From Raillietiella orientalis (lineage: Eukaryota): a stretch of 64,000 nt of DNA. Positions 16,039 through 64,000 of the stretch are shown in pieces. Where the stretch lies: assembly GCA_036172245.1 (NCBI GenBank), contig JAYWIR010000072.1, forward strand, positions 186,001 to 250,000, read 5' to 3'. Position numbers and translations under genes: made by a program. Position 1 is the first letter of the stretch, and every line of letters starts with the position of its first letter. The notes under the pieces were generated by a model. The model was not told the origin of the DNA and did no database searches. It saw nothing but the letters and a program-made list of their open reading frames with translations.

Positions 16039-16073
<35 letters not shown>

Positions 16074-16824: not shown

Positions 16825-16858
<34 letters not shown>

Positions 16859-16962: not shown

Positions 16963-17000
<38 letters not shown>

Positions 17001-27395: not shown

Positions 27396-27411
27396 GTCGG
27401 CACTCCTTTTA

Positions 27412-28742: not shown

Positions 28743-28827
28743 GGACGCAATTGTTGTCCGCTCCTTCAATAGGGAGTTTTTATATTCTGGTGTTCCGTGT
28801 GTGTTTCGCGGCCGTTGAAAGGCAGAA

Positions 28828-30441: not shown

Positions 30442-31333
30442 ACACACCAACGCGTGGACTCTCCTCCTGCCGGCGACTGCGCGTAATCTGTTGGAACGTC
30501 AACGGTTTGCGCGACGACGGCAAGAGGAGAGAAGTGGCCGCCAGCCTGCGGGACTTCGATCTGGCGCTTCTGCAGGAGACGCACGTTCTCCACGCAGATG
30601 AGGCCTAGGAAATCGAACGGATCGCAGGCGGGCGGCTCGTATACCAAAACGGGAGAGACCACACCCGCGGTGTGGCTTTCATGCTGAAGCCAGCCGTCGT
30701 TAATGCGCTGCGCGACGTGCACTTCGACGGGGAAGGTCAAATCGGGCAGCTTGTTGGCAAGAGGTCCGACGCGATCGACCTCGTCGTGACCAACGTGTTC
30801 GCGCCCGGCACGAGCCCACAGGCGCGGGGAACGCACTGCGTTCTTCGAAGGCCTGCGGCGAGATTGGCTGGCCGAAGCAGACATGCGAAAGGCGCACCTC
30901 ATTGCCGGGGACTTTACCGTCCTCCTGCTGGCAGGTGCGCCCGACATTCGCGCACAGCTGATCAACGAGATGTGCGCTGCCATGCACGCGCGCAACTTGT
31001 TGGCCGGTGACGCCGGGACGGAGACGAGGATCGACCACATGTTCCTCGACAACCACCTGTGTTCGCGGGTGGGAAATCGAGGGGCAGTGCCATCCGAACT
31101 TTCCGACCATCCCCAGCTGGCGCTAGAAATACAACCGCGCGGTAGAGGTCCACCCTCCACAGCGTGGCGTTTGCCAGGGGACTGGTTGCGCCTTGCAGGA
31201 GCAGCGCAACATCTTCGCTCGTTCCTGCAAGGCTTCCATCTGCAGTCGCTCGCGGACTGGGACGAATTGAAGAGCTCAGTCCGCGAGTTCTGCGACCAGT
31301 TTCCCCTGAACCGTCTCCCTCCAGGTTTCGGCG
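30441..31333 (+). pseudogene. ORF2 APE endonuclease domain of the host element, disrupted
   Basis: WNVNG, LQETH, IAGDF, IDH, SDH motifs; internal stop and frameshift. Confidence 0.85.
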
Positions 31334-31537
31334 TTGCCACCCGGGTACGCCCGGGGCGTTTATTGATAAACTTTACATGCGTGGTACAAGGCCCCACCAC
31401 GGCCGTAAACACAGGACCTGTCGGGACACTGGGACGCAGCCCGGCGGGGCACTCCCCGACAGCGAAGGGGGATAGGGATGAGACAAAAAGTAAAATAAAA
31501 AGAAACAAACAAAAAGAAGTTGGAGGGCAGGGAAGGG

Positions 31538-34500
31538 ATAACTGGTGGCTGTGGGGAGGGCCCATCCGTCGAACGAAGCCCTCGAGGTCAGCCTGCATAT
31601 TCCACAGTTGGGGCCATCCGGCAGCTCTTCGCAAGAAGCGTTTGGCATACGGGATGACATCCCTCGCCTGTGGACCCACTCCTTCGTTGTTGGCGTCGCT
31701 CCATGCCGCCACGATGCCACGGACGCAGCACAATGCTGCGATGGCTGCGGCTGGCTGCAGTGCGTCCTTCACGAAGAGGGGCCGAAGAACGTCTCTGGGG
31801 GTGCTGCCCGTAGGGAGCCCGAGGGTCGTCCCGAACAGTTCCCAAAGGGGTCGGAGGGCAGCACAATCCACAATAAGGTGGGGAAGCGACTCCCGCTCCC
31901 CGCACCTGGCACACGCAGGATCCACAGCTCCCCTCGTCCAGTGGAAGCGGCGCGCGTTGCAAGGTAGACCCCAGTGCAACAAAAGCAACGCCGACTCTTG
32001 CCACTTCAGGGGCAGGATCCTGGATTCTTTCATCACCGGGGGCCACTTCAGCTCATCCCTGGGGATGGCGAGCAGCTCGCCCCATCTTAATAATCCTCGC
32101 GGCTGGACGCTCGGGGTCGAGGCGTCGGCCAGTTCTCCTGTTGTCCAGCCGCTGATCAACTTCTCCTGTCCCTCGATGCAGCAGGAGACTTGCCACCTTG
32201 GCGTCCGGGTGCTGTGAAGTGCCCTCCTTAGGAAGGGTAGCGCCGTAGCTAGGCAGGTCGTCTCTGCCCACGTGCATCTTGCTGAACTCTCCAGGAGATT
32301 CCGCAGCGTGCAGCGGGCGTAGGGGCTGCATCGGAGACGATTCCACGTCTCGTGGCGTCTCTGGTTAACTACTGCCCACGTTCCAATATTCTCCTCCAGC
32401 CAGGCGGGGGAGTTGGCGGGGCAGCAAACCATCCAGCTGTTCTCCTCGGCCAATGTTGCCATGCGCCCGAGCAGTAGGCCGCATCTTCGCATCTTCCGGC
32501 CACGGCTCAGAAGAAAAGACGCGAGTCCATCGCACCGGGACACACGGCTGGCCAGGAGGCGGGCCGGAGTGCACCAAGGGGTGCTCCACATCTTCGCTGC
32601 GATCGCGAGGGTTGCCACCGCAGCTGCTTCTCCACGCGCTCCAGCGTCAGGAGGCCAAGACCGCCGTCCCGACGCGGAGCGCACAAGTCCTTCAGTGGGA
32701 CTCGGGGCCTCCCCTTGCTCCAAAGGGCGATACGGAGGAGGTCCTTCGTCCTCTTCTTGGATTCCACGGTGGGGGGGCAAACAAAAAGCAAGGGGCGGAG
32801 GATGGGGGCCGCGTAGGCGTTCCAAACCGCGGCCCGTTCCGTCAAGTAAAACTTGCCTTCCAGGAACGGGCCGATTGCCGTCTCGACTTTTTGGAGGCCG
32901 CTGGACCACGCTTCCGCAGGGGAGTAGTCCCCCAACGGCACACCAAGGTACTTGAAGCACCTCGCCGTGGGGATCCCCAGGCGGACCCAGTCCTGCTGCC
33001 CTGCCCACGCCGCACCTATTGGCACAACCGACGACTTCGCCCTGTTAACCTGCAGTCCGGTCCCGCGGCTGAGCAGATCGAAGAAGTCTCCGACCGCCTT
33101 TCCCGGGGTGGACATTGGCAACAAAAGCAGAAGATCGTCGGCGTACGCTGCTACGGCGGGCGTGCCGGGGCACGAGCTCGGCAATGGGGCCAAAGTCACC
33201 CTGTACGCTCTCAGCACCAACTCAAAGTAGGTGCTGAAGAGCAGGGGGCTGAGGCTATCTCCCTGCCTTATGCCCCGCCGCACCGGCACGCCATACACCT
33301 TTTGACCGCTGAAAGAGACGGTAATTATCGCATTCTGCCAGCAAGAGCGCAGGTAGGAAATCAGGGAGGGTGGAAAGCCCATGCGACCCAGGAGCTCCAA
33401 GAGAAGTTCCTGGTCTACACAGTCGAACGCCTTGTGGAGATCGACTGCGAGCGCTAGGGCCCCCTTCCCCGCCCGGAGGTCCCTTCCCAGCCCGGCTGGC
33501 GGCCCCAATGTTGGGTTGCCGACTTTCCCTATCCCTTTCTTCTCTCTTCTCTGCAGGTGCACCCATGTGCTTGCGAAGAAGAGGTTGGCATCCATACTTC
33601 GCCCGGGAACAGCATAAGTCAGCTCCGGGCTAATTACGGATTCTGCCACCTGTCCCAGACGCGAAGCCCATAGCCCTGCGATCAACTTGGCGTCCGTATT
33701 CACGATCGTGATCGGACGCCAGTTCTTTAAATCCCTGAGGTCTCCCCCTTTCGGCAGGAGCCTCACTCTGGCTGACCGAAACGAGGCGGGAACATCGCGT
33801 TCGTCTCGGATCAGCCTGATCAACTTAAGCAGCAGGGGTGCCAGCTCTTCCGCGAAGCTCTGAAAGAACTCCGCGGGCAAGCCGTCTTCCCCTGGAGCTT
33901 TACGCCTCTTGAGCCTTTTGATACCGGCGAGAATTTCGCCGGTGGTAAAGGCTCGTCGAGGCTTTCCATCTCCTCCTCCCCTATTGCCGGGGCGCCATCC
34001 GGAAGCAAGCGCCGAGAGGCGTTTCGATCCGGGGGCTGCCTGGCGTAAAGGGAGGAATAGAAACTCCGCACGAGATGCCGTACCGACGCCGGGGACGAAC
34101 ATTCCCGGCCCTGGTAGTCCAGCAAGCTGGCCGACCCGGATTGCCAGGCTTGGCGTTCGGCCCCGGCGCGGTACTCGGCCAGGCGACGGACATTAGGGGT
34201 TCTCTCGTACCTACGAGCCTGTAAATAGGCCCGATGGTTGCGAGCACCCTCGCTGAATCCACGGGGCAGGCGATCCAGGGGGAACTGCTCACAGAACTCG
34301 CGGACCGATTCCTTAAAAAGGTCCCAGTCCTGGAGATTCCAGAGCGTGACACCTCTCAGGTATTCGCGAAGGTATTCCTTCGCACCTGAGAGTCGCGTTC
34401 AGTCCCCCGGCAGACGCCAATCCCTGGATGGCGGTCCCTTGTCACGAGGCCGCATCTCGAAAATTGACCGGGAATGGTCCGACAACGTCGACCCAACCCT

Positions 34501-35133
34501 CCCCCGTTTGCCGACCCGTGAACACAGGTCAGCGTCGAGGAAGACGTGGTCGATGCTGCGGACCATTCCCCTCTCACCCGCGAACAAGTTGCGCGCACGC
34601 ATGGCGGCGCACAACTCGTTCATCGCGTTCTCTTGGGTTTCTGGCTCACCTGTTAGCAGACGGAGATTGAAATCTCCCGCTATCAGGTGAGCCTTCCGCA
34701 CGTTCGTGTCCGCCAGCCAGTCGCGCTTCAGGGAATCCAGCAGCCTGGTACGGTCGCTGTATCCCTGTTTACTGCTGGGGGCGTACACATTCGTGACGAT
34801 CAATTCGATCGAGTCGGACCAGCTGAGAATCAGCTGACCGACCCGACCGTCGTCATCGAAGCGCACGCCCTTCACGGCCGCGTCGATGGCCGGCTTCACG
34901 AAGAACGCGACCCCGCAGGTGTTGCGGAGGCCGCACCGTCAATACAGCCGACCCCCCGCGATCGTCTCGATCTCCTGGGCGTCTGCCGCGGTGATCACGT
35001 GGATCTCCTGCAGCAGGGCCAGGTCGAGCTCACGCAGGGTGTCGGCTGTATCTCGCCTGTTGCCGTCGTCGCGCAGCCCGTTGACGTTCCAACAGGCGGC
35101 GCGAATCCGACGGCGACTGGCGAGCCCAGGTGT
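31538..35133 (-). pseudogene. alpha-1 ORF2 (APE-RT-CCHC), frameshifted
   Basis: Fragments 34399-34899, 32507-34102 and the C-terminal part within the 29949-33008 frame. Confidence 0.85.
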
Positions 35134-36887
35134 TATTCCTGGGAAGATGGCGATGCGGCGTCCGCCACCCGTTGGGGCGGGACGCTAGGTGGAGGAGGAG
35201 GGTCAGGCGCTGCGTGCACCTGGTCCCCCTCCTCCATGGGTAACGGCGCGTCGAGGGGGTCACCCTTAGGTGGGGTCGCGCCTACCTGTTGGCCCTCCTC
35301 CATGGGGGCGGGCTGTTCAGGCTCGGCGACTGCAGGGAGGACTTCGCCCCCCTGCTCACCCTCCTCCATGGGGGTGGCCGGCTCGACGGCTTCCGAGCGT
35401 GGGAGTCCCCCCTCCGGGATTCCCACGCCACCGCTACCTTCCTGCTTCTCCTCCTCGCTGGTGGAGGGGAGGCGCCTCCTGGGTTTCTGGGACTTGCGTC
35501 CCGACTTCCTGGGGGGTGCCTCCGAGGAAGAGGATGCACTTCCGGCCCCCAGGTCCGACTCACCTGTGGGGGCCTTTTTCGCGGGAGCCGGCCTTCGCAC
35601 GGCCTTGCGTGAGGGGTTCTCACGCTCGGCCAGCGTGGCCGCGAGCTCCTCCGCCGCCTTTGCGAACGCGGCGTCCGCAGTGTCGACCGGCGCGTCGCGC
35701 GGCTCACCCTCTGTGTAAACAGAGGGTTCGCCGTCGCGAACCTCGGGCGCGGCGGAAACGGCGAGGGAAGGCTCGTCGCCCCGGGTGGCAATCTCGGGAA
35801 CGGCTATGCGCTCCAGTGCTACCGTACACTCCCGCATGGTCTTAGAGCGCGGCCCAGGTTTTTTCGCCTTGCCGGCTGTCTTTTTTACCGCTTTCGCGGG
35901 TTCCGCGGGGGGCACCTTTTTCTCCTTCCTGGCCTTGACCAGCTGCCAGCCGTCTTGGACTCCCGCGTCTTCGGAGGGTTTTTCTTCCGACGCCTGTGTG
36001 GGAGGAACAGGGGCTAGCGGCTGCTGCCGGCCAGGATCTCTTTTTGGTCTTTCGACCAGTTTACTGCGTTTTGCCTGTGCTTTTTTTGCAGCAGGCGGCA
36101 CCGGAGTGGGGCGTTTAGGGCATACGCGGCGTACGTGGCCCTTCTCCCCGCATAAGTGGCACACAATGTTCGGGCACCGCTTGCGCAAGTGTCCTACTGC
36201 ATTGCAGTAGGCACAAAAGCGGGGTTTCCCCACGTAGCAGAGGTCTACGACTTCGCCATTGACCTCTAGTTTGTGGGGAAGCCCACTCTCCTTCACCGTC
36301 ACGCGCGCGGCGGCCTGCCCTCCGAAAAGGCTATCGTAGCCATCGAAGATTGTGGCCTTTGGCCAAAGCGCGTGAACATCTCCGTGCTTTCTTAACTGAT
36401 CACCAACCGCAGACCGCGTCATGCGGCTGGTGATCCCTGTCAGATGGACCACTACGGAGCGGTCCATCGTGACTGGTAGGATCTTGCGTCCGTCCACGTT
36501 CAGCGGGGTGGTTATCAAGCTTTGCGCCAAGGTGATGTCCTTGCAGACAACCTCAACGCGCTGACCCCCGCTTAGCACGGATAGACCGTCAAGGTCCTTT
36601 TCCAACACGTTGGCGTTCTGCAGCGCTTTCGAAAAAGCGCGTGCAGTTCGCCCGTCAAAGAGATTGCCTACCTGGTAAACCAAGCTGGGCTTGTACCCAG
36701 CTGCCCGGTAGGCCGCCATCTCGGCCATGGTTTCCGCGATCGGCGCGGCCACCATGGCGCTCCAGCTCCTCGCCTTGAGCGGCGAGGGCGATTCCGGGGC
36801 GGACGCCCCTGATTCTGTAGGCTGTGGGGGTGGGCAAGCCTCCCCCACACCTACCTCCATCGTGGTGTCCTCAGGCATCGCTGCCAT
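35133..36887 (-). CDS. alpha-1 ORF1p (two CCHC knuckles)
   Basis: Open frame from MAAMPEDT; CAYCNAVGHLRKRC and CHLCGEKGHVRRVC. Confidence 0.85.
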   Translation of the reverse strand: MAAMPEDTTMEVGVGEACPPPQPTESGASAPESPSPLKARSWSAMVAAPIAETMAEMAAYRAAGYKPSLVYQVGNLFDGRTARAFSKALQNANVLEKDLDGLSVLSGGQRVEVVCKDITLAQSLITTPLNVDGRKILPVTMDRSVVVHLTGITSRMTRSAVGDQLRKHGDVHALWPKATIFDGYDSLFGGQAAARVTVKESGLPHKLEVNGEVVDLCYVGKPRFCAYCNAVGHLRKRCPNIVCHLCGEKGHVRRVCPKRPTPVPPAAKKAQAKRSKLVERPKRDPGRQQPLAPVPPTQASEEKPSEDAGVQDGWQLVKARKEKKVPPAEPAKAVKKTAGKAKKPGPRSKTMRECTVALERIAVPEIATRGDEPSLAVSAAPEVRDGEPSVYTEGEPRDAPVDTADAAFAKAAEELAATLAERENPSRKAVRRPAPAKKAPTGESDLGAGSASSSSEAPPRKSGRKSQKPRRRLPSTSEEEKQEGSGGVGIPEGGLPRSEAVEPATPMEEGEQGGEVLPAVAEPEQPAPMEEGQQVGATPPKGDPLDAPLPMEEGDQVHAAPDPPPPPSVPPQRVADAASPSSQE

Positions 36888-36967
36888 CGGACACCAACGA
36901 TGTTCCACACTGAACAACACAACAAAAAACCGCTTCCTGTCAACTCACTCGGGAGCGAAGGAAACAC

Positions 36968-37002
36968 ACGTCCACTCGCCAAGGGTTTCGGCGAAGGGCT
37001 GA
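36968..37002 (-). promoter_or_regulatory. Putative Inr (host-derived) + DPE (element-derived) promoter of alpha-1
   Basis: Minus strand TCA(+1,37000)GCC and GGACGT starting at 36973 (= +28). Confidence 0.5.
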
Positions 37003-39731
37003 GGAACGACCGGGCATACCACCACCCCCGTCTTAACTCTAGGACTCCCGACGTTCGACGCCTGGCGGAGTATAAAGCTGGGGCTGAGCGACAGACCTGG
37101 CAATCCGGGTCGCCCAGCTTGCTGGACGCCCAAGGCCAAGAATCCTCAGCTCCGGCAAGAATAAACCGCATCCTGCGGGACTATTACTCCTCTTTGTACG
37201 CGCGAAGAACAACGGAGCGCGCCGTGGCGCAGCGCTTGCTGCCGCAATGTGCCCCCGCGCTGCAGGAGGAGCAGGCACATGAGCTCGCGGAGCCTTTCTC
37301 AATTTCGGAGATCGTCTCCGCCATCGGAAAGCTCCAAAAGAGGAGAGAAGCAGAAGAAGACGGTCCGCCCTCGGAGTTCTACCAAGGCGTCGTGGCGGAG
37401 CTGGCCCCCCTGGTTCATCGGCTATGCATGCTGATCCGAGAACAAGGGGACGTCCCCAATTCGTTCCGGTCAGCTAGAGTACGTCTCCTGACGAAAGGAG
37501 CAGACAATCGCAACGTAGGCAACTGGCGTCCCATCACAGTAGTGAATGCGGATGCGAAGTTGCTTGCCAAGCTTTGGGCTGAGCGACTGGGACGGGTGGC
37601 GGAATCCGTGGTGAGTCCGGAGCAGACATACGCTGTTCCCGGACGAAGCATGGAGGCCAACCTGTTCCTCGCCAGTACATGGTGGCAGTTGCAACAAAGC
37701 GAAGACCAGGGAGGTCAAGAGAATCCTGAATTCTCCTCTGACCAGGGAGGGGACGCCCTTCATGGAAGAGCCGCGCCCGGTGCCCTTGCGGTCGCAGTCG
37801 ATCTGCGTAAAGCGTTCGATTGCGTCGACCAGGAACTGCTTCTGGAGCTCCTGGAACGCTTGGGATTCCCGGACGTCTTCCGAGCTTACCTGCGCTCCTG
37901 CTGGCGCTTCGCTCTAATCAACATCTCTTTGAGCGGCCGGCACGTGTACGGCGTGCCGGTTCGGCGTGGCATAAGGCAGGGTGACAGTCTGAGCCCCTTG
38001 CTCTTCAGCATCTACTTCGAGCTGGTGCTGAGGGCATACAGGGAGACTCTGGCAACCCTGCCAAGCTCGTGTCCCGGCACGCCTGCCGTGTCGGCCTACG
38101 CCGACGACCTTCTGCTCCTGCTCCCCGGGTCCACCCCAGCGTCGGTGCTCGAAGATTTCTTTGAGTTGCTGCGCCGCGGGACGGGCCTCGAGGTGAACAG
38201 AGAGAAATCCACAATCGTTACAACATCACCACAACTATTCAACCATGCGGCGTGGGCCGGACGGCCGGACTGGATCCGCTTGGGGATCCCCACGGGCAGG
38301 TGCTTGAAGTACCTTGGCGTTCCGTTGGGGGACTTCTGCGTTGCAGAAGCCTGGTCCGACCGTCTCCAAAAGGTGGAGTTGGCGATCGGCCCGTTCCGGA
38401 ACAGCAAGTTATGTTGTATGGCGTTGGCGATCGGTCCGTTCCAAGAAGGCAAGTTCTACTTGCAGGAACGGGCCGCGGTGTGGAACGCGTTTGCGGCTCC
38501 CCTCCTTCGCCCCCTACTTTTTGTGTGCCCCGCCCCTTATTTTATTCGGAAACGAGCAGCGGGCCTCCTGAGGACAGTCCTTTGGGGCAAAGGGAGGTCC
38601 CGTGTGAGGCTCAAAGACTTGTGCGCTCCACGTAAGGACGGTGGACTTGGCTTACTTACGCTGGAGCGCATCGAAATACAACTTCGATTCAGGACTCTCG
38701 CCCTTGCGGCAGAATTGTGGGACACGCCTTGGTGCGTTCCAGCACGCCTCCTGGCCCAACGAGCCTGCGGAATCGGCGGACTTTTGTCGTTTCTGTCTGC
38801 GCGCGTCTGCAGAAGACCGTACTGTGGCTCTATGCTGCGACGCATCTTTGTTGCGGTTCGGGAGAACGCCTGGATCTCCTGCCTCCCAGGGAACTACTCC
38901 GCCTGGTTGCACGAGTCAGTCTCCACCTGGGTAAAGATCCACGTTCCGGCGGGCACAAGGAACACTTGTATGAAAAGGCACGCCCGCTGGACGCTGCAGG
39001 AGATCGTGCAGTCCCACGACAAGCTTCTGTGGGCCTTGATAACCCCCCTCGCCCCAGTGCTGCCCTTCCTTGTGAATGCCAGGGACAGTAGCGAGCAGGG
39101 GAAATGGACCGTGTCCTGCACTATAGGCGGCAGGACACAATCGATAAAGGCGTGGACATCTCGGCAGCTAGCTGACGCTGCGACGCCGAGTGTCCCGCCC
39201 AACGGAATTCGACGCTGGGGCGAGCTACTCGGACTATCTCCGGAGGAGATGAAGTGGCCCCCAGCGTCCTGGAACAGTGCATCCCTCCCCCTGAAATGGC
39301 AGGATGTGGCGTTGCTTGCGGTACTCTGGGGATTACCATTTAAAGCACGCCTGCACCACACCACCCGGGGGGCTGTGGATTCCAATTGTGACCGGTGTGG
39401 GGAAAAAGAAACATTCTTCCACCTTCTCCTTGAGTGTAGCGCCCTCCGCCCTTTATGGGATCGTCTCGCGGCGATCCTGGACTTGCGCGGATGCGGCCCA
39501 AAAGACGTTTTCAGGCGCCTCTTCTGTAGTGACGCCTTTTCCCTTTCCGCTAGTGTAGCAGTCCTCTGCTGCATCAGAGGAATAGTGGCGGCTTGGAACG
39601 CCACCAGAAGAAGGCGTCAGCCAACCGGCAACGCCTTACACTGGACTCGCCTTTTCGCGCGCAGTGTCTGCAAGTGGCGCCACTTGGGCGCTGAAAGGAC
39701 TCAGCTTGTGCGGATCCTGAATAGGATCTAG
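36984..39731 (+). pseudogene. Host ORF2 3' part (RT-CCHC), open frame but separated from its endonuclease
   Basis: NWRPIT, VDLRKAFD, GIRQGDSLS, YADD, CDRCGEKETFFHLLLEC. Confidence 0.85.
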
Positions 39732-39991
39732 AGGACCTCTCCACGCGCACCGTGATCCCTTCCCCGCCCTCCCACCTCTACAACATTTGTTCCATCCCAC
39801 ATTTGAACTTTTTGTTTCTTTTTGTTTTTCTTTATTTCCCATCCCCGCGCATCGGAAGGACCTCTCCGGCACGGAGCCAATAACCAGCAAGCTGTTTTAA
39901 AGTGGTGAACCTTCGGGTTCGCCACGCGACATTGTTCTGTAATTTTATTTCTATGAAATAAATGCCCCGGCACATCCGGGTGTGAACAACC

Positions 39992-41370
39992 CGCCGCCGC
40001 GCGCACGCCGACGCCGCGACAAAGTCGCGAGCCCAGAGTGAGCAGCGACGACCGGGACTTCAACAAGGCGGCGGAAGAGTTGGCAGCCATGCTCCAACAA
40101 CCTCCCAAGGCCGAGAAGATGGCCTTGAGGCGTCCGGCTGAGGCGAAAGGACCGGAGACTTCCGAGTCCGAAGCCGAATCCGGCAACTCTCCGGCTGTCG
40201 CTCTCCCGAAGCGCAAAGCGGGCCGCAAGGTAGGCAACCCGCGGCACTCCACACCTCCACCGGCGGAGGAGAAAATGCGGTCGGACCACGACGACGGGGA
40301 GGCGATGTCCGCGAGGTCTCACGACTCCTCGACGGAGACGTCCCTGGCCAAGCAGGATCCTCCAACCACCACCTCAACCACCGACGGACCGCCTCCTTGC
40401 GAGCAACAGTCCTTCGCAATGGATACACAACTCCCGCCTGCTGAACAGCAGGCGAAGGACGGTATGCAAACACCATAAACCCACCAACGCGTGGACTCTC
40501 CTCCTGCCGGCGACTGCGCGTAATCTGTTGGAACGTCAACGGGTTGCGCGACGACGGCAAGAGGAGAGAAGTGGCCGCCAGCCTGCGGGACTTCGATCTG
40601 GCGCTTCTGCAGGAGACGCGCGTAATCCACGCAGGGGAGGCCCAGGAAATCGAACGGATCGCAGGCGAGCGGCTGGTATACCGAAACGGGAGAGACCGCA
40701 CCCGCGGTGTGGCTTTTGATGGTGAAGCCAGCCGTCGTTAACGCTCTGCGCGAGGTGCACTTCGACGGGGATGGTCAAATTGGGCAGTTTGTTGCCAAGT
40801 GGTCCGACGCTATCGAACTCGTCGTGAGCAACGTGTAGGCGCCCGGTACGAGCCACAGGCGCGAGGAACGCACTGCGTTCTTCGCAGGCCTGCGGCGAGA
40901 TTGGCTGGCCGAAGCTGACATGCGAAAGGCGCACCTCATTGCCGGGGACTTTAACGTCCGCCTGCTGGCAGGTGCGCCCGACATTCGCGTACAGCTGGTG
41001 AACGAGTTGTGCGCTGCCATGCACGCGCGCAACTTGTTGGCCGGTGACGCCGGGACGGAGACGAGGATCGACCACATGTTCCTCGACAACCACCTGTGTT
41101 CGCGGGTGGGAATTTGAGGGGCAGTGCCATCCGAACTTTCCGACCATCCCCGGCTGGCGCTAGAAATACACCCGCGCGGTAGAGGTCCACGTTCCACAGC
41201 GTGGCGTTTGCCAGGGGACTGGTTGCGCCTCGCAGGAGCAGCGCAACATCTTCGCTCGTTCCTGCAAGGCTTCCATCTGCAGTCGCTCGCGGTCTGGGAC
41301 GACTTGAAGAGCTCAGTCCGCGAGTTCTGCGACTAGTTTCCCCTGAACCGTCTCCTTCCAGGTTTCGGCG
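39992..41370 (+). mobile_element. Second host (gamma) copy, 5'-truncated, ending at the GFG site
   Basis: Near-identical to ~29953-31333; ends GGTTTCGGCG (41361-41370); continuation appears at 63925. Confidence 0.85.
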
Positions 41371-52900: not shown

Positions 52901-55824
52901 GGGCTTGCAAAAAGTCTCTACTGTTGGCCACGCCCTCTCCGAAACCGCGTGGAAGCCGGTGCAAGGGGAATTGGCAGCAGAACTCGCGGACAGATCTTTT
53001 GAGATCGTCCCAGTCCGCAAGTTCTTGAATGGCAAAGCCTCGGAGGTATCCACGTAGATGCTCCGCAGCCTCCGGTTGGCTAAGCCAATCCGCCTTCATC
53101 CTGCAGTTTTGCAACGGAAGCCCCCCACCTGGCAGAAGGATCTCAAACTCCAACCTGTGGTGGTCAGAAAGCCTAGTCAACAATCTTCCTATCCTACCCA
53201 CACGCGAATGCAGGTTTTCATTGACGAAAACGTGATCGAGCGATCTTTCCATTCCAGGTTCGCTGACAATCAAGTTGGCAGCGTGCACGGACGCGCACAT
53301 CTCGATGGGCAGCGCGCGCTTCCTCGGGCGGCTCCAATCGTCGGAGAGCAGGCGGACGTTGAAGTCCCCAGCGACGAGGTGCGCCACTTGGAAACCGGAG
53401 TTGTTGAGCCAGTGGCTCTGCACCTCACCAAAGAAAGCTACTCTTTCTTCGAGGTAGCGAAAGCCACTAGGCGCGTAGACGTTCGCAACGACGAGATCGA
53501 TGGACTCGGACCACTTGATGACAAGCTGGCCTATCCGTCCGCCGTCATCGAAACGAACACTACGCACCGCTACCGCCATTTTTCCTCTTACGAGGAACGC
53601 GACGCCGCAAGTGTGTGCGCCGCCGCACCGCCAATGTAGCGTTCCGCCTGCGCGCTCCTCGGTTTCGGCTGACTGCTCGTCGGAGATTACGTGAATCTCC
53701 TGCAGGAGCGCGAGGTCGAAGGGGCGCAGGGCGTTGGCTACTAATCGCCACTTCTCGTCGTTCTGTTGTCCGTTCACGTTCCAACACGTTACGGACAGAC
53801 GACGAGAAGACGCGATTTCCCGCATTACTGCTGGGAATGTGGCGGCTTTTTGCTCGCTTTATTCGGCGAGCAGACGGCGAGTAGCACGACTGGCTGGAGG
53901 AGACGGTCGCCACCGTCCTCTGTCGTGCTGCATGCATGTAATGCCTCCACGCCAGGCTTAACCCCGTCGGGTTTCGTGGAGACTTCGCGTGGCTTCGCAG
54001 CTAGCGTTGCTTGGCTGCCTACTTTTGATCGGCGCGCACACGCTTTCGAACGAGTTGTCCTCGTCTCGGTGATCGGAACGGCATCCATTTCGGAGTCCGA
54101 CCGGCGCTTGTTCGATCGGGTTTCGGCCTTCCGCGAAGTAGTGACAGGTTCTGCTGGATTGACAGCTGTCCTGTTTTCTTTTTCCGTTTCCAGAGCATCG
54201 CTTTTGGTGGCGGCTGCTTTCCCGGCGCGCGCGTTTTCAACGTGCTCACGCGCAGTTGCACGAGGGACCTTTGCTGAAGTCTTGTTTACTTCATTACGGT
54301 TCCTCACTTCGCGTGGCGCCGTAAATGGAGATTGTGCTCCATTGCCATCTTTGAAGCCATCCAAGTATTTAAACGGGAGCACTTTCGATGGCTCCGACAC
54401 GCTCGTGATGGACGCTGCCCTCGGAAGCGCTTTTAATCCCTTCGTTGGCATGGCATCCGCGCCAGTCGAGAGCTTGCTCTCCGACTGCGACGGCGTGAGA
54501 TTTTTCTCTGCTTTCGCGATGTTGGATCGCGACGCGGATTTTTTTTTGCCGACTTTCGAAGTCGATACAACACAACCCTTCTTACCCGATTTGGGCTTCT
54601 CAGCCACTGCAGGAGGTGAAGGAATGAATCTGACGGTACTGGAAGTGTCCTTACCGCCGTTGTCCATTGGCGTCCCCGCCGGTTGCTCGAACTCCGAGAG
54701 AGCCGGGCGTGCTTGGGAAGGACAGCTATTACGCCTAGGAGGACTTACCATTGCCTTTGATTCCTTGCACCCTTTGTTTTGCGGCTTACTTGCCGCGAGA
54801 GGGGGCGCGTAGGGCTTCGCGTGCGAATTATCCTGCTTCTTTGTGGCGACATTCCGCTTCGCGTTTTTACGGAATTTCTGCCGTGGTGTCTCCAGGATTT
54901 TCGCAGATTTTTTCTTCTTATCCGCGCTTGGTTTTTTAAGGTGGAGCTCCGCGGCTGCCTTTTTCCGCAAAAGATCCGGCAATTTTTCAATTGGTGCCCG
55001 GATAGTTTGCAATAACGGTATTTTCCAGAGGGGCATTTATCCAAACAATGCCTCTCCTTCCCGCATTGCTCGCACGCTCTTTCTTTGCCCGCGAACCACA
55101 GGTAAACGACCGTGTCTTTTACTTGTAGTTTGGTGGGTAGCAGATGGCGGTCCGACATTGTAAACCGGACTCCAGCGATTCCGCTGTGTATGGACGAGAA
55201 GTCCTTGAGGTTGCTACGCACCCTCCACAGCGCATGGACCGTGGCGAATTTCGCCAACGCGTTCCGAATATCAATATCGGAGATTTCCGACTCGATGTTG
55301 AAAATCTCCGCCACAAATAAGTCGTCCATGGTGGCCGGGAAGACCTTCTGGCCACGTATCGACAACAGGGTGCGCAGCAAGCGTTGCACAAGTGCAGCGT
55401 CTTTGCAACGCACCTTGAAATAGCTTAAATCCTTCACGGACATAATATCGATGAGGTCCTCCTCCCGCACCCAACACGGGTCAGTTCATCGTTGAAGTGA
55501 TTCCCGTCCCGCGCAGAAAGAAAACCACTCACCTTATATCGGAGAGCAGGTCTATAGCCTTGGGCTACGTATGGCCGCAACTCCGACTCGTCGAGTGGTT
55601 TCCCTTTGACGGATGCTGTGGCAGCAACGTCAGCAAAACTCCTCTTCATTCGTGAGAAAGACGAAGTGGAGGCGGCCGTCGGTTCCGCGACTGCAGATCC
55701 GCATGCTGTTCCTCCAACTTCAGGAGCTTCGGGTTGGGTCGACATCGTCGTCAAAATGTACGACGCCAAGATGAAGCGGATGACAGCACGGAGACGAGAG
55801 CGAAGAAAATCCCGTCCGCACTCG
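49917..55824 (-). mobile_element. Tx1-like zeta, full length and diverged; 8-bp TSD in the alpha APE GDFN codons
   Basis: ATTGAAAT at 49909-49916 and 55825-55832; ORF1 53825-55745 frameshifted, APE 52611-53825, degenerate RT. Confidence 0.85.
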
Positions 55825-58263
55825 ATTGAAATCACCCGCTATCAGGTGAGCCTTCCGCAAGTTTGTGTCCGCTAGCCAGTCGCGCTTCAGGGATTGGAAC
55901 AACCTGGTATCCCTGTTTACCGCTCGGGGCGTACACATTTGTGATCATCAGTTCGATCGAGTTGGACCAGCTGAGAATCAGCTGACCGACCCGACCGTCG
56001 TCATCGAAGCGAACGCCCTTCACGGCAGCGTCGATGGCTGGCTTCACGAAGAACGCGACCCCGCAGGTGTTCCGGAGGCCGAATCGCCAATACAACCAAC
56101 CCCTTTGCGATCGTCTCGATCTCCTGGGCGTCTGCCGCGGTGATCACGTGGATCTCCTGCAGCAGCGCCAGGTCGAGCTCACGCAGGCTGTCGGCCGTAT
56201 CTCGCCTGTTGCCGTCGTCGTGCAGCCCGTTGACGTTCCAACAGGCAGCGCGATTCCGACGGCGTCTGGCGAGCCCAGGTGTTAGTCCTGGGAAAATGGC
56301 GATGCGGCGACCGCCACCTGCTGGGGCGGGACGCTAGGTGGAGGGGGAGGGGGGACAGGTACTGAAGGCACCTGTTCCTCCTCCTCCATCGGTGCCGGCG
56401 CGTCGCCCGGATCACCCGCAGGTGGAGCCGCGCCTACCTGTTTGCCCTCCTCCATGGGTTCGCGCTGCTCAGGTTTCGCGACTGCAGGGAGGACTTCACC
56501 TCCCTGCACACCCTCCTCCATGGGGGTGGTCGACTTGTCGGCTTCCGGGCGTGGGTATTCCCCCTCCAAGATTTCCACGCTGCCGCTTCCTTCCGGCTTC
56601 TCCTCCTCGCTAGTGGAGGGGAAGCGCCTCCTGGGTTTCTGGAACTTGCGTCCCGACTTCCTGGGGGGTGCCTCCGAGGAGGAGGATCCGCTTCCGGCCC
56701 CCAGGTCGCACTCACCTGCGGGGGCCTTCTACGTCGGAGCCGACCTGCGCACGCCCTTGCGCGACGGGGTTTCGAGCACGGCGAGCGTTGCTGCGAGCTC
56801 CTTTTCCGCTTTCTCGAAGGCCGCGTCTGCGCCAGCGGCGACCGTTGCCGCGGGCTGCTCCGCGACCTTATCGAGCGCGGCGTCATCGCTGACGGCGAAC
56901 GCTGCCGCGGGCTCCTCCGCGACTTTATAGAGCGCGGCGCCCTGGCTGTCGGCGCGCGAGTCTCGCGTCTCACCCTCTAAACGTAGAATGGGCACGTCCA
57001 CGCGAGTATTCATCGCGTCCGCATCAGCTGTTCCGCGAACATTGCCGCGGGCGGACTCGGCAGGAACGGCTTAGCGTTCCAGTGCCAACGAGCATTCGCG
57101 GAGTTGTTTTTTTGAAAGCGGCGCGGCTTTTTTCTTGTTGCCGGCAGTTTTCTTCTCCGACTTTTCTTCTGGCATCACTTTCTTTTTTTTCTCTTTTCTG
57201 GCCTGAACCAGCTGCCAACCCTCCTCCATTTCCGCGTTCACGGGAGCTATTTCCTACGACGTCTGTACGGGAGGAAGGGAGGCTGGCGGCTTGGAACGGC
57301 CATTTTCGCGAGCTGGTCTTTCTACCAGCTTTCTACGTTTTCCCTGCGCCTTTTTGGCGGCAGGGGGCACCGGGGTGGGGCGCTTGGGGCACACGCGCCG
57401 AACGTGACCCTTTTCGCTGCATAGGTGGCACACAATGTTCGGGCACCTTTTTCGTAGATGATCTACTGCATTGCATAAGCCACAAAATTGGCGTTTCCCC
57501 ACGTACCAGAAGTCCACCGCTACTTGGCAGACCTCCAGCTTGTGAAGAAGCGCACCACCCTCGTTTACTGTGATACGCGCCGCAGCTTGACCTCCGAAAA
57601 GGCTATTGTAGCCTTGGAAAATCGTGGACTTCGGGCACAACGCGTGCACTTCTCCGTGCTTTTGTAGCTGTTTTCGAACCGCTGACCTAGTCATGCGACT
57701 GGAGATCCCAGTGAGATGGACCACCACCGAGCGGTCCATCGTTATTGGCAAGATCTTCCGACCATCAACGATCAGCGGGTCGGTGATCAGGTGTCGGGCC
57801 AAGGTGATATCCTTGCATACCACCTCGACCCGCTGCCCGCGGCTGAGGACGCAGAGGCCGTCGAGACCTTTTTCGAAAATATTGGCGTTCTGCAGCGCCT
57901 TCGTAAAGGCGCGTGCAGTTCGCCCATCGAAAAGGTTGCCTACCTTGTAGACTAGCGAGAGTTTATACCCCGCTTTCTTGTAGGCTTCTATCTCGGCCAT
58001 GGCTTCCACGCTAGGCGCGGCCACCATGGCGCTCCATGACCTCGGAGTCGCCGGGGACGATTCCGGGGCGGATGCCTTTGATTCTGTAGACTGTGGGGGT
58101 GGGCATGCCTCCCCCACACCCACCTCCATCGTGGTGTCCTCAGGTATCGCTGCCATCGGACACCAACGATGTTCCACTTGAAAACACACAAAGAAAAAAC
58201 CGCTTCCTGTCGACTCACTCGGGAGCGAAAGAAAAACGCGTCCACTCACCAAGGGATTCAGCG

Positions 58264-61200
58264 ATACCACCCCTATACGCCGGGACGTTTATTAAAAACA
58301 TTTCAACGGTCAATACAGAACGTGGTACAAGGCCCCACTGACGGCCACGGAATGCCGGAACTGCCGGGACACCGGGACGCAGCCCGGTGTGGCTCTCCTC
58401 GGCAGTGGAGGGGGATGGGGGAAAAAACAAAAATAAAATAAAATAGAAAAACAAACCACAAAAAAAAGTTTGGAGGGCCGGGAAGGGATCACAGAAAACT
58501 GCTGGGAGCGCCCATCCTTTGCAGGATGCCTTCTAGTTCCATTTTCAGCTTCCCTAGATGGGGCCATCGGGTAGCTCACTGCAGGAAGCGCGAAGCATAC
58601 TTGATGACGTCCCTCACGATGGAGTCTTCATCTTCGGCATCACTCCAGGCCGCCACGATACCACGAATGCAGCAAAGTGCTGCCAGGGCTGCGGCTGGAC
58701 TGAGAGCGTCCCGCACGAAGACAAGACTGAAGTTACATTCAACATTGCCACCATCCGGTATCCGGAGGGCAGTTTTCAGACGATCCCAAAGAATCCGGAC
58801 GGCAGGGCATTCAACTAAGAGGTGGGGGAGCGACTCCCGCTCCCCACACCTGGCACACGCAGGATTTACTCTTCCCCGCGTCCAGTGGAAGCGGCGCGCG
58901 TTGCAGGGTAGACCCCAATGCAGCCACAGAAGCGCCGATTCTTGCCACTTCAGGGGATAATCCTGGATCCAAGTAGAATCGGGGGCCACTTCAGGTCATC
59001 CAATCGAATGCCGAGCAGCTCGCCCCATTTTCTTAATCCACGCGGCTGGAGACTAGGGGTCGTTGCATCTGTCAACTCTCCCATGGTCCAGCCGCTCATC
59101 ATCTTCTCTCTGCCTGCGATACGGCAGCAGACTTGCCACCTTAGCTTCCGGCTTCCGTGAAGCGCCCTTTGAAGGAAGGGCATCGCCGTAACAAAGGGTG
59201 TGCCTTCCGCCTACGTGCAACTCGGTGGAAATTCAAGAATTTCACGGAGAGTGCGGCGGGCGTATAAGCCGACTCGCAGGCAGTTCATCCGGTCTTCGCA
59301 CCTTTGGTTCTGTGTAGCCCAGGTGCCAGCAGTCTCTTTCGGCCAAGCGGAGGAGTTGGCAGGGCCACAAACCATCCAGTCGTTCTCCTTTGCCAGGGTT
59401 GCCATGCGGCCGAGCATTGGACCTCATCTTCGAATCTCCCGGCCAGGGCACAGAAGAAACGATGCGAGTCCTTCGCAGCGGGACACACGCCTGGCCAGGA
59501 GGCGGGCCGGAATGCACCAAGCGGTGCTCCACATCTTCGCTGCGATGGCGAGGATTGGGTTTCCACGCGCTCCAGCGTCAGGATGCTGAGACCGCCGTCC
59601 CGACGCGGAGCGCACAAGTCCTTCAAAGGGACTCGGGACCTCCCTTTGCCCCAAAGAGCTATGCGGAGGAGGTCCTTAGTCCGCTTTTTTGATTCCACGG
59701 GGGTGGGGCAAACAAAAAGCAAGGGGAGGAGGATGGGGGCCGCGAAGGCGTTCCAAACCGCGGCCCGTTCCGGCAAGTGAAACTTGCCTTCCAGGAACAG
59801 GCCGATCGCCGTCTCGACTTTCTGGAGGCAGCTGGACCACGCTTCCGCAGGGGAGAAGTCCCCCAACGGCACACCGAGGTACTTGATGCACCTCACCGTG
59901 GGGATACCCAGACGGACCCAGTCCTGCTGCCCTGCCCACGTCGCTCCAACTGGCAACACTGACGACTTCGCCCTGTTAACCTGTAATCCGGCCCCACGGC
60001 TAAGCAGGTCGAAGAAATCTCCGACCGCCTTAGCCGGGGTGGACATAGGTAAGAGGAGCAGAACATCGTCGGCATACGTCGCTACGGCTGGCGTGCCGGG
60101 GCACGAGCTCGGCAAGGGGGCCAAAGTCACCCTGTACGCTTTCAGCACCAACTCAGCGTAGGTGCTAAAAAGCAGGGGGCTGAGGCTGTCGCCCTGCCGT
60201 ATGCCCCGCCGCACCGGCACGTCATACACCTTTTGTCCACTGAAAGTAATTGAGATTATTGCGTTCCGCCAGCAAGAGCGCAGGTAGGTAATCAAGGAGA
60301 AATGGGAAGCCCATGCGACCGAGGCGCTCCAAGAGGAGTTCCTGGTCAACACAGTCGAATGCCTTATGGAGGTCGACTGCGATCGCTAAGGCCCCCTTTC
60401 CCGCATGAGGGTCCCTTCCCTGTCCCACTGGCGGCCCCAGAGTAGGGATGCAAATTTTCCCTTTCCCTTCTTTATTACTCCGCTGCGCGTGCATCCATGT
60501 GCTCGCGAATAAGAGGTTGTCCTCCATACTTCGCCCGGGAACAGCGTAAGTCTGCTCTAGGCTAATTATTGAATTGGACACCTGCCCCAATCGCCAAGCC
60601 CACAGCCCGGCAATCAACTTGGCGTCCGTGTTCACAATCGTGATCGGACGCCAGTTGCAAAGTTTCCTGAGGTCTCCTCCCTTCGGGAGGAGCCTCACCC
60701 TGGCTGACCGAAACGAGGCGGGAACATCGCCTTCGTCCCGGATTCGCCTTGTCAACTCGAGCACCAGGGCAGCCATCTCTTCCGCGAAACTCTGAAAGAA
60801 CTCCGCAGGCAAGCCGTCCTCCCCTGGCGCCTTACGCCTCTTGAGCCTTTTGATACCGGCGAGAATTTCACCGGTCGTGAAAGGCTCATCGAGGCTTTCT
60901 CTCTCTTCCTCCCCTATCGCCACGGAACCACTCATGAGCAATCGCCGCGAAGCGTCTTGTTCCGGTGGTGTTTTGGCGTAAAGGGAGGAATAAAAACACC
61001 GCACGAGATTCCGTACCGCAGACGGGGACGAACGTTCCCGGCCCATGTCATCCAGCATGCTGGCTGACCCGGATTGCCAGGCTTGTCGCTCGGTTCCGGC
61101 GCGGTATTCGGCCAGGCGACGGACATTGGGGTTCCTCTCGTGACGACGCGCGTGCAAATACGCGCGTTCGTTGCGAGCCCCTACGCCGAATCCCCGGGGC

Positions 61201-63924
61201 AGACGTTGCACAGGGAACTGTTCGCAGAACTCCAGGACCGAGTCCTTAAATAGGTCCCAATCGGCGAGACTCTGGAGGCTGACGCCTCACAGGAATTCGC
61301 GCAGATGTTCTTTCGCTCCTGACAGGCGCGTCCAGTCCCCTGGAATACGCCAATTCCTGGATGGCGGTCCCTTGTCGCGCGGGCGCATCTCGAAAACTAA
61401 CCGGGAATGCTCCGACAGCGTCGATCCAAGTGTCCCTCGTTTTCCGACCCGTGTGCACAGGTCTTCGTCGAGGAAGACGTGGTCCACGCTGCTGACCATC
61501 CCACTTATTTCTGTCAACAAGTTGCGCGCGCGCATGGCGGCGCACAACTCGTTGATCGCGTTACCCTGTGCTCCGGGCTGATCTGAGAGCAGACGGACGT
61601 TGAAATCCCCTGCTATGAGATGCGCCTTTCGCACGTCCGCGTCCACCAGCCATTCGCGCTTCAAGGTTTCCAGTAACGCGTTGCGCTGCTGGTATCCCTG
61701 TTTACCGCTAGGAGCGTACACATTGGTGACGATGAGGTCGATCGAATCGGACCATCTGAGAATCAGTTGGCCGATCCGTCCGTCGTCCCCAAAGCGCACG
61801 CCCTTCACGGCCGCGTTAATGGCTGGCTTTAGGAAGAACGCGACCCCACAAGTGTTGCGGGCGCCGCATCGCCAGTACAACCAGCCTCCCGCAATCGTTT
61901 CGATCTCCTGGGCGTCTTTTGCGGTGATCACGTGGATCTCCTGCAAATGTACCAGGTCGAAATCTCGCAAGGTGGCGGCTGTATCTCGTCTTTTTCCGTC
62001 GCCGCGCAGCCCGTTAACATTCCAACTGGCCGCGCGGATCCGACGCCGACAGGCGAGTCCAGGTGTTATTCCTGGGAACCTGGCGGTGGAGCTCCCTCCA
62101 CCTTTTGGGGCGGGTCGCTGGACGGGGTTGGCGACTTGCCCACCAACTCCCCATCCTTCTTTCGTGCCGACGTCTCCGGCTGCCCGTGCGAAGGGGGTGT
62201 TGTTCGTACCTGTTGGCCCACATCCATTGGTGCGGGTGGTTCAGGTTCGGCGGTTTCAGAGGGCATTGCTGACCCCTGGTTACCCTTTTCCGTTGGAGTC
62301 GCCTCCTCGTCGGCTTCCGCACGTGGGTGATGCCCGACTTGGGCTCCCACGCTGCCATCCACTGGTTCCTCCACCATTGGATCCCCCTCGCGCGGAGGCG
62401 CAATGCACCTTCGGGGTTTCTGGGATTTTCGCCCCGCTTTCGTTGGTGGTGCTTCCGCAGAGGAAGATGCACTTCCGGCCTCCCGGTCCGACTCACCTGC
62501 GTGGGCCACTTTAGCCGCTGCCGGTCTACGCAACCCCTTTCGCGAAGGGTTCTCGCGTTCGGCAAGCGTTGCCGCAAGCTCCTCGGCGGCCTTCTCGAAG
62601 GCTGCGTCCTTGGTTTCGGCGATTTTGTCGTCCGGCTGACCCTCTTCGCAAACGGGGGGTGGGTTTTCGCGCGCATTCGTCGCGGCGGGAAAATCGATCG
62701 AAGCCGTATCGCCTCCGGTGGTGTCGGCGGGAACGTCAATGCGCTCCAGCGTAACCGTGCATTCTCGGAGAGTTTTTACGCGCGACACGGATTGAGCTTT
62801 TGTTCCGGCCGCCGCCTTCTCTCCTTCCTTCGGGACATGCTTGTCCTTTTTTTCTTTTTTGGCTTTGACTAGCTGCAAGCCCTGTTCACCCTCTGCGGTT
62901 TCGGGAAGATTTTTCTCCGATGCTGCGCTTGGAGCTTGGGTTATTGGCAGCTTTTCTCGGCCAGTTTCACGGTTTTCTAATTTTTCTTTCCCCGCGCGTT
63001 TCGCTTGCGCCTTTTTGGCGGCCGAGGAAATTGGGGTGGGGCGTTTAAGGCACACGCGACGGACGTGTCCCTTCTCCCCGCACAAGTAGCATACGATGTT
63101 CGGGCACCTCTGACGGATGTGTCCGACCGCATCGCAGTAGCGGCAATACCGTGGCTTGCCAGCATACCAGAGGTCTACTGGTTCTCCCGCGACCTCAAGT
63201 TTGTGGGGTAGCTTCGCTTCGTTTTTTGGGGTTACGCGTGCCGCAGCGAGGCCCCCGAAGTGGCGTCCGTAGCCCTCGAAGATTGTGGGCTTCGGCCACA
63301 GCGCGTGTACGTCCCCGTACTTACTTAATTCTGCTTTTACGGCAGTGCGCGTCATGCGCTTGGATATTCCTGTCAAGTGGACCACTACCGAGTGGTCCAC
63401 TGACACCGGGAACATCTTACGGCCGTCCATGATCAGCGGGGTATTTATAAAGCGATCGGCTAAGCTGATGCTCTTGCACACCAGCTCAACCCGCTGCGCC
63501 CCGCTGAGCACGCACAGACCGTCCAGATCTTCCTCACGGACATTAGCATTTTGTAGCGCTCTGCTGAAAGAGCGCGCGGTGTTTCCTTCAAACAAAGGGC
63601 CTACCTTGTATACAAGCGATGGCTTGTATTCAGAGGCCCGATAGGCGGCTTCCTCGGCCATGGCCTCCGCACTGGGGGCGGCGACCATTTCACTCCAAGT
63701 CTTCGCCGGCTGCGAAGACGTTCCAGGGACTATTGACCCCATAGATGTAGGTCCTGTGGTAGGACTTGCCTCCCCCACAACCACATCCCTCGCGGTGTCC
63801 TCTGGCACAGCTGCCATCGGACACCGACGACCCACACTTAACACCTGATTACACTAAAAAAAACTCCGGTTGCTTCCCAGACAGGCGCAGGCGGCGCGAC
63901 CAAAAAACACGTCCACCCACACCG
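58264..63924 (-). mobile_element. Tx1-like alpha-3, full length, in tandem with alpha-2 at the GFG site
   Basis: Flanked by GGATTCAGCG (58254-58263) and GCTTTCGGCG (63925-63934); ORF2 frameshifted. Confidence 0.88.
62066..63817 (-). CDS. alpha-3 ORF1p
   Basis: From MAAVPEDT; CRYCDAVGHIRQRC and CYLCGEKGHVRRVC. Confidence 0.85.
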   Translation of the reverse strand: MAAVPEDTARDVVVGEASPTTGPTSMGSIVPGTSSQPAKTWSEMVAAPSAEAMAEEAAYRASEYKPSLVYKVGPLFEGNTARSFSRALQNANVREEDLDGLCVLSGAQRVELVCKSISLADRFINTPLIMDGRKMFPVSVDHSVVVHLTGISKRMTRTAVKAELSKYGDVHALWPKPTIFEGYGRHFGGLAAARVTPKNEAKLPHKLEVAGEPVDLWYAGKPRYCRYCDAVGHIRQRCPNIVCYLCGEKGHVRRVCLKRPTPISSAAKKAQAKRAGKEKLENRETGREKLPITQAPSAASEKNLPETAEGEQGLQLVKAKKEKKDKHVPKEGEKAAAGTKAQSVSRVKTLRECTVTLERIDVPADTTGGDTASIDFPAATNARENPPPVCEEGQPDDKIAETKDAAFEKAAEELAATLAERENPSRKGLRRPAAAKVAHAGESDREAGSASSSAEAPPTKAGRKSQKPRRCIAPPREGDPMVEEPVDGSVGAQVGHHPRAEADEEATPTEKGNQGSAMPSETAEPEPPAPMDVGQQVRTTPPSHGQPETSARKKDGELVGKSPTPSSDPPQKVEGAPPPGSQE

Positions 63925-64000
63925 GCTTTCGGCGAAGGGCTGAGGAACGACCGGGCATACCACCACGCCCGTCTTTACTCTAGGACTCCCGACGTTCGAC
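63925..64000 (+). mobile_element. Host ORF2 resuming after the GFG site (runs off the window)
   Basis: Near-identical to 36984-37059 (FGEGLRNDRAYHH..SRTPDVR). Confidence 0.85.

Follow-up and report, generated by a model that had tools for sequence, protein, structure and literature searches.

Site-specific long interspersed nuclear elements (LINEs) are usually thought to avoid harm by settling in redundant host genes (ribosomal DNA (rDNA), small nuclear RNA (snRNA) genes, telomeres) or in DNA transposons. The locus described here raises the question whether a LINE can have such a fixed address within a sister LINE, in coding sequence. It is a stretch of 64,000 nucleotides of Raillietiella orientalis (assembly GCA_036172245.1, contig JAYWIR010000072.1, positions 186,001 to 250,000; hereafter the window), in which three minus-strand copies of one lineage, termed alpha (alpha-1, alpha-2 and alpha-3), are all bounded by one 10-mer of a related plus-strand LINE, the host, present as host1 and host2. 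We consider it probable that alpha is a distinct lineage of L1-superfamily LINE encoding an apurinic endonuclease (APE) that inserts by site-specific target-primed reverse transcription (TPRT) into the linker of its sister LINE, always in antisense orientation.

The 10-mer at the alpha junctions

The 10-mer GGTTTCGGCG is found unchanged at both ends of alpha-1 (31324-31333 and 36984-36993) and at the left end of alpha-2 (41361-41370). It has one mismatch at the right end of alpha-3 (GCTTTCGGCG, 63925-63934) and two in the spacer between alpha-2 and alpha-3 (GGATTCAGCG, 58254-58263). A preliminary description had placed these five junctions at a single 10-mer and had reported a perfect target-site duplication (TSD) for alpha-1. 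Both statements hold, the two TSD copies of alpha-1 being identical in 10/10 bases. The window contains four exact copies of the 10-mer where 0.29 would be expected, a count that 0/100 shuffles reach; three of the four are at junctions, and the fourth (62612-62621) is unoccupied.

In the plus-strand host the 10-mer encodes G-F-G, as seen in the translation ...FPLNRLPPGFG/EGLRNDRAY... (the slash marks the junction), and the host frame runs on across the insertion with no host base lost. About 72 codons separate the site from an upstream SDH motif, located close to where the APE domain of the host ends; we take this motif to mark the end of the APE fold. Extrapolation from an alignment with human L1 ORF2p would place the site in the linker between endonuclease and reverse transcriptase (RT). 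The insertion point is the same base for all three alpha copies, each of which runs antisense to the host, and both site-bearing host copies are occupied. Within the window the alpha copies thus share insertion site, orientation and TSD length, as is expected of a sequence-specific LINE.

Each of the three alpha copies is full length. In a maximum-likelihood tree of the RT core they form one clade, apart from host1 and from two further lineages of the locus, gamma and delta (split support 100). Alpha-3 had been described as clearly diverged and yet inserted at the same base, and this is borne out by its 79.8% identity to alpha-1 over 4348 bp. We considered an assembly artefact and rejected it, because repeat collapse cannot yield three copies that have diverged and yet end precisely at TSDs.

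The alpha 3' end consists of AATAAA, a short conserved hairpin and a tail of 2-4 nt with no poly(A), which distinguishes alpha from the Zepp LINEs, whose elements carry a poly(A) tail. Similar ends were found for all lineages of the locus (7/7 ends found), with AATAAA, a short CCC.GG/CCGGG hairpin, a 2-5 nt tail and again no poly(A). The hairpin is conserved in 7/7 ends, but 0/5 of its predicted pairs covary, which leaves it a predicted structure only. An alpha-specific 3'-end motif has exactly three matches in the window; these are the three alpha 3' ends, and 0/100 shuffles match it.

The arrangement of these ends suggests how alpha would insert. An endonuclease, presumably that of alpha, would nick the sense strand of the host at 5'-GGTTTCGGCG^AAGG-3'. 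The freed 3' OH would then prime complementary DNA from the 3' end of the alpha RNA, and the minus strand would be cut as the second strand, 10 bp further left, which would generate the 10-bp TSD; the order of the two nicks is likewise presumed. Because the alpha 3' end adjoins the left TSD copy, the primer for the first strand would be the plus strand of the window, nicked at GGTTTCGGCG^AAGG, while the combination of a missing A-tail and a conserved 3' motif suggests that synthesis starts precisely at the 3' end of the RNA. A transcript that reads through and ends with the complement of the 10-mer could pair perfectly with this primer. Pairing of this kind is used by R1-type elements. Since the TSD restores most of the site, a second element could insert beside the first, and this would give rise to the tandem of alpha-2 and alpha-3.

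Independence of the insertions and extent of the specificity

Three insertions at one base could also descend from a single event, a possibility already raised in the preliminary description. One old alpha insertion might have been copied together with its junction, either in a DNA duplication, segmental or tandem, or when a host-alpha composite retrotransposed. The two host copies are indeed adjacent and in tandem, and host plus alpha can be aligned as one block (29950-33842 versus 39987-43877, 92.6%). Such copying predicts equal and neutral divergence of host and insert. The 5' flanks of host1 and host2 differ at 73/1383 sites (5.3%; 94.7% identity, 1310/1383) and the 3' flanks at 3/76 sites, whereas the divergence between alpha-1 and alpha-2 ranges from 8.4 to 21%. 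Relative to the host flank, alpha-1 and alpha-2 differ significantly more in the 3' part (210/2507; Fisher p = 3e-4), in the region of the APE/ORF1 junction (122/1005; p = 2e-9) and in the 5' kb (212/1059; p = 2e-29). The exception is a 343-bp APE piece of alpha-2, which differs from alpha-1 at 23/343 sites, with no significant difference from the host flank (p = 0.29).

The two lineages also diverged in different ways, as judged from the ratio of nonsynonymous to synonymous substitution rates (dN/dS, Nei-Gojobori method). The alpha copies, which differ overall by 8-27%, show dN/dS values of 0.29-0.45. For alpha-1 versus alpha-2 the ratio was 0.45 in the RT (dS 0.107, p = 8e-4) and 0.29 in ORF1 (dS 0.58, p = 5e-27), and for alpha-1 versus alpha-3 it was 0.34 in the RT and 0.31 in ORF1. 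Between host1 and host2 the ratio was 1.8-3.0 and not below 1, with 6 synonymous changes at 253 sites against 41 nonsynonymous changes at 770 sites in the pooled data (Fisher p = 0.057, a value that depends on only 6 synonymous changes). In 200-bp windows the identity between alpha-1 and alpha-2 reaches 91.5-96.5% in the RT core and falls to 71-80% in most of ORF1; the identity profile tracks coding constraint. The low dN/dS and this profile indicate that the alpha copies diverged under purifying selection, as active lineages, while the two host copies appear to have decayed neutrally from nearly the same sequence.

The arrangement of alpha-2 and alpha-3 provides a third line of evidence. These two copies, about 79% identical, stand in tandem within one host copy; the spacer between them has exactly the length of one TSD, and the outer flanks of the tandem are 95-96% identical to host1. 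As both elements share one host copy, duplication of the host cannot explain them. Taken with the unequal divergence and the contrast in dN/dS, the tandem makes descent from a single insertion very unlikely within the window. We take at least two of the insertions, and most likely all three, to be independent.

Gene conversion can spread a junction in another way. An endonuclease without specificity would be sufficient if ectopic conversion or recombination through the host flanks had carried the junction to empty host copies. With host flanks of 95-96% identity in a repeat-dense region, conversion is plausible, and the mosaic identity of alpha-2 to alpha-1, from 79% to 93% along the element, could reflect conversion tracts, so that the relation of alpha-1 to alpha-2 could be accounted for. 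Conversion does not, however, produce a tandem of two diverged alpha copies with a spacer of TSD length, and identity along the element varies with coding constraint, not in blocks. Moreover, dN/dS well below 1 means that the alpha lineages kept retrotransposing, and yet 3/3 copies are seen at one site. We therefore regard this explanation as improbable.

A third possibility is that alpha has a weak or regional preference only, for instance for heterochromatic relatives next to rDNA in a nesting of the Zepp type, and that the GFG site is a local hot spot. The dense nest of related LINEs does adjoin 28S rDNA fragments, and other elements of the nest lie elsewhere: delta is inserted in the APE region of alpha-2, and zeta, a fragment of another lineage, about 24 codons upstream of the alpha equivalent of the GFG site. 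Weakly specific families of otherwise specific LINEs also exist, such as the reptile Utopia family, according to the available text of PMC4640811. Three full-length insertions that hit one and the same base in one orientation, each with an exact duplication of 10 bp, are more than regional preference alone would be expected to produce, and we consider such a preference an unlikely account. The insertions of other lineages at other positions (delta, zeta and the fusion of host1 to host2) are each single cases.

The variants of the site within the window bear on how far the specificity of alpha extends. Sites homologous to the host 10-mer are present in alpha-1 (GGATTCAGCG), alpha-3 (GGATTCGGCG), delta (GGTTTCGGAG) and gamma (GGATTTCGAG). 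All have changes in the 10-mer or in the bases adjacent to the nick, their flanks differ from those of the host, and 0/4 are occupied. Together with the empty exact copy of the 10-mer, these empty sites mean that recognition must reach beyond ten bases and that the 10-mer alone is insufficient. The spacer between alpha-2 and alpha-3 is identical to the homologous 10-mer inside alpha-1 (34251-34260, minus strand). One of its two changes is a CpG transition, so the match may have arisen by chance; alternatively, the flank of the source copy was possibly brought along into the new insertion.

Several observations count against site-specific insertion of alpha into its sister LINE. Part of the divergence pattern could also result from gene conversion, over kilobases, by other alpha copies, and a simple double insertion predicts neither the changes at 2/10 bases of the spacer nor its match to the internal site of alpha-1. 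The exact 10-mer that is empty lies within alpha-3, on the strand opposite to its coding strand. Stops and frameshifts have inactivated all three alpha copies, and the role of the endonuclease is deduced from sequence. Furthermore, the sample consists of three insertions in two neighbouring host copies of one 64-kb window, and off-target alpha copies as well as empty host sites may be common elsewhere. The proposal that one LINE targets another of a sister lineage stands for the window, where divergence, dN/dS and the tandem spacer argue for independent antisense insertions at one ORF2 site; its genome-wide reach does not follow from these data.

Public sequence collections were searched for further copies. 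The alpha 3'-end motif had 0 matches in viral_contigs and 0 in metagenome_contigs; a single match in genome_contigs, in a bacterial metagenome-assembled genome, was taken as chance, as neither tblastn nor blastn showed similarity to the window there. Protein-guided locus searches returned 47 metagenome loci at 19-39% identity, none close enough for a junction to be read, and in the viral collection one locus at 25% identity, which is too distant for the same purpose. A protein search with the host RT gave 26 matches, of which the best was 63% identical (P0001, on a 2.9-kb contig) and the others at most 31%, unnamed or annotated as "uncharacterized". The Atlas gave RVT_1/zf-RVT clusters only, and a 200-aa frame across the left junction had 0 protein matches. 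Reads of run X1, which contains 0.48 of the sampled words, gave short contigs only over 30900-37400 (longest listed piece 618 bases), and runs X2 and X3 yielded no contig over this interval. Among the listed X1 joints none skips the alpha insert, the contigs being too short to show empty sites or other flanks.

Organization of the LINE nest and the adjoining rDNA

The alpha insertions are part of a larger structure. From 27.4 to 64 kb, at a GC content of about 0.6, related L1-like LINEs of at least six lineages are nested in one another. The pieces of the nest listed in Table 1 were delimited by tblastn with the window's own proteins and by self-comparison of the window. Pfam domains for APE (Exo_endo_phos), RVT_1 and CCHC knuckles are present in the reading frames of the nest elements. 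Exo_endo_phos and RVT_1 score above the Pfam cut-off in alpha-1, alpha-3, gamma and delta, as does RVT_1 in the host; the host APE was detected by tblastn and translation, and the C-terminal zf-RVT match of host1 is slightly below the cut-off (26.4 versus 27.5 bits). Residues 346-474 of the gamma APE open reading frame (ORF), a linker segment just before the RT ORF, match residues 392-521 of human LINE-1 ORF2p (E = 2.5e-21), and the N-terminal part of the same ORF matches L1 endonuclease chains at about 1e-4. The nest elements have the features of the L1 superfamily, with APE followed by RT in ORF2 and a linker and RT resembling those of L1 ORF2p.

Table 1. Features of the 64-kb window (positions are those of the window; UTR, untranslated region)
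Feature	Position	Strand	Basis and remarks
28S rRNA gene fragments	1-970, 9199-10456, 16032-17499	+	Rfam LSU_rRNA_eukarya
R2-like retroelement, about 5.5 kb, two copies	~850-6400, ~10394-15945	-	RVT_1
28S rRNA gene fragment	21178-21666	-	Rfam LSU_rRNA_eukarya
epsilon	27406-28796	-	gamma-like copy with internal deletion of about 1.4 kb; head-to-head with 5'-truncated host1
host1, 5' part	28797..31333	+	5'-truncated ORF1 and APE, through the GFG 10-mer; tblastn and translation
alpha-1, left TSD copy	31324..31333	+	GGTTTCGGCG
alpha-1, full length, 5650 bp	31334..36983	-	Pfam, tblastn, 3' motif, 5' end
alpha-1 right TSD copy and host1 3' part (linker, RT, C-terminal region)	36984..39986	+	TSD 36984-36993
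host2, 5'-truncated within ORF1	39987..41370	+	ends with the 10-mer 41361-41370
alpha-2, 3' part (RT to 3' end)	41371..43877	-	91.6% identity to alpha-1 (2297/2507); 3' motif
gamma, related lineage inside the alpha-2 region	43878..48918	-	Pfam, tblastn
zeta, 3' fragment of another related lineage	48919..49573	+	tblastn, 3' end
alpha-2, APE piece	49574..49916	-	93.3% identity to alpha-1 34331-34673
delta, related lineage in the alpha-2 APE region, same orientation	49917..55823	-	Pfam APE
alpha-2, 5' part (APE start, ORF1, 5'UTR)	55824..58253	-	
spacer, 10 bp, GGATTCAGCG	58254..58263	+	TSD copy with 2 changes; alpha-2 5' end / alpha-3 3' end
alpha-3, full length, 5661 bp, diverged sub-lineage	58264..63924	-	
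right TSD copy GCTTTCGGCG and host2 continuation (linker)	63925..64000	+	window ends inside

Alpha-1 has a 5'UTR of about 90 nt, an ORF1 with a CCHC knuckle (35136-36944) and a broken ORF2 with APE and RT. The APE frame of host1 contains one stop and one frameshift. At its 3' end (...GGGTGTGAACAA, 39986) host1 is fused directly to host2, which starts at the equivalent of host1 29950; this head-to-tail pair could result from a double insertion or from a template switch. The last 76 bases of the window (63925-64000) are identical to host1 36984-37059 at 73/76 positions.

Alpha-2 has itself been interrupted several times. Gamma is the least decayed element of the nest, with an ORF1 of 598 aa, an APE ORF of 481 aa, an RT ORF of 654 aa and one in-frame stop. 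The boundary between alpha-2 and gamma (43877/43878) was rejected as an insertion junction: gamma is here without the 3'UTR that the gamma-like epsilon carries, so that the junction looks like a deletion. In the 3' flank of epsilon (26.7-27.4 kb) no family was matched. The 3' end of zeta, antisense to alpha-2, abuts it in the ORF2 linker at the equivalent of alpha-1 34331, and the 5' side of zeta is lost. Delta is bounded on both sides by ATTGAAAT (49909-49916 and 55825-55832), which indicates that alpha-2 was once continuous across it.

To the left of the nest, the first 22 kb of the window contain four 28S rRNA gene fragments (101-813 bits with Rfam LSU_rRNA_eukarya). The nest thus adjoins degenerate rDNA that has a site-specific element of its own, present as two R2-like copies. 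The RT-thumb region of this element best matches R2 proteins in PDB (E = 6e-7). It breaks the 28S gene between ...GGGAGTAACT and ...TAAGGAGTGACGCGCATG, a point that we take to be close to the classical R2 site, and it is antisense to the rRNA, an orientation that would be unusual for an rDNA-specific element. Both copies are part of a 6.6-kb block that self-comparison shows to be duplicated with 99% identity (1-6638 versus 9545-16186). The same region holds an inverted repeat of about 1.2 kb (16997-18168 versus 20554-21693, 84.5% identity) that includes 28S 3' ends.

Related systems and implications

Close parallels to alpha come from the Tx1 clade, which is described as found in animals, and in which Tx1L targets the piggyBac-type Tx1D, Tx1-Mar targets Mariner-N4_AMi and Tx1-9_AMi a Harbinger element; two crocodilian families, Tx1-8_Crp and Tx1-4_AMi, target long terminal repeat (LTR) retrotransposons (PMC4494074, available text). 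"Transposons" are also listed among the targets of specific LINEs in the accessible part of PMC4640811. In Kojima's working criterion, as given in the available text of PMC4494074, a LINE counts as sequence-specific when >20% of its flanks are shared. Alpha resembles these families as an APE LINE of the L1/Tx1 group for which another family of transposons serves as a multicopy landing place, fixed in both site and orientation. It differs from the Tx1 families in that its target lies in the protein-coding part of a sister LINE, at a conserved ORF2 motif that is entered antisense; a LINE target is not reported in the available text of that study (PMC4494074).

The Zepp LINEs of green algae target existing Zepp copies (PMC8226300, available text). 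Zepp and ZeppL resemble the nest, being GC-rich L1-type LINEs in clusters nested in relatives, although the available text of PMC8226300, PMC3446292 and 10.1101/2022.06.16.496473 describes neither a fixed nucleotide site nor an antisense rule for them. Zepp arrays, moreover, are mostly made up of 5'-truncated 3' ends in tandem according to the available text of PMC8226300, whereas 3/3 alpha copies are full length, antisense and at one base. Cnl1 arrays, as far as the available text goes, are subtelomeric and are described with no fixed internal site.

Parallels to the tandem are known from R1, whose double insertions are tandems with 33-nt rDNA spacers of duplicated target (PMC5932611), and from Utopia-1_NVit, which forms tandems in U2 snRNA genes (PMC4640811), both as presented in the available text. 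The tandem of alpha-2 and alpha-3 with its spacer of TSD length has the structure described for the R1 double insertion (PMC5932611, available text). R1 and R2 in 28S rDNA, and Utopia and Keno in U2, share with alpha a strict specificity for a conserved multicopy sequence; their targets are RNA genes of the host genome, while that of alpha is a retrotransposon ORF, and R2 and Utopia use a restriction-like endonuclease where the alpha group encodes an APE (PMC5932611 and PMC4640811, available text). In the open-access literature searched we found no LINE that occupies a sister LINE's ORF2 at a fixed site in antisense. The earlier impression that no case of this kind had been described is nevertheless too strong, since Tx1 elements in transposons, LTR retrotransposons included (PMC4494074), and Zepp elements in their own copies (PMC8226300) come close in the available text of these sources. 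The Tx1, Zepp and R1 precedents weaken the novelty of the alpha case.

A wider reading, which we regard as doubtful, is that the sister LINE lineages form a hyperparasitic network in which each endonuclease evolved to cut a conserved ORF2-linker motif of a relative and in which targets escape by codon changes. Two antisense insertions may belong to it, that of alpha at the host GFG site and that of zeta, which lies about 24 codons upstream of the alpha equivalent. If this were true, the elements would live inside and inactivate one another, and escape would proceed by synonymous or near-synonymous changes such as GGT/GGA, TTC/TTT and GGC/AGC at the 10-mer. The identity of the spacer with the alpha-1 10-mer would then mean that alpha sources are also located in alpha-like elements and that the flank was carried along.

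As the case of alpha rests on one locus, its weight depends on a genome-wide count. If site-specific insertion of alpha into its sister LINE is true, it would represent transposon-on-transposon parasitism within one family group, with a conserved coding motif of the sister LINE as the landing site. By splitting the endonuclease from the RT, the insertion would inactivate a competitor, and alpha would gain a multicopy and selectively neutral home; to call this home a "safe haven", as was done in the preliminary description, is an interpretation. Endonuclease specificity and target codons would then be drawn into an arms race. Alpha would also add to the natural APE-type endonucleases one whose site is long and GC-rich, and this would bear on how L1-type endonucleases gain specificity.

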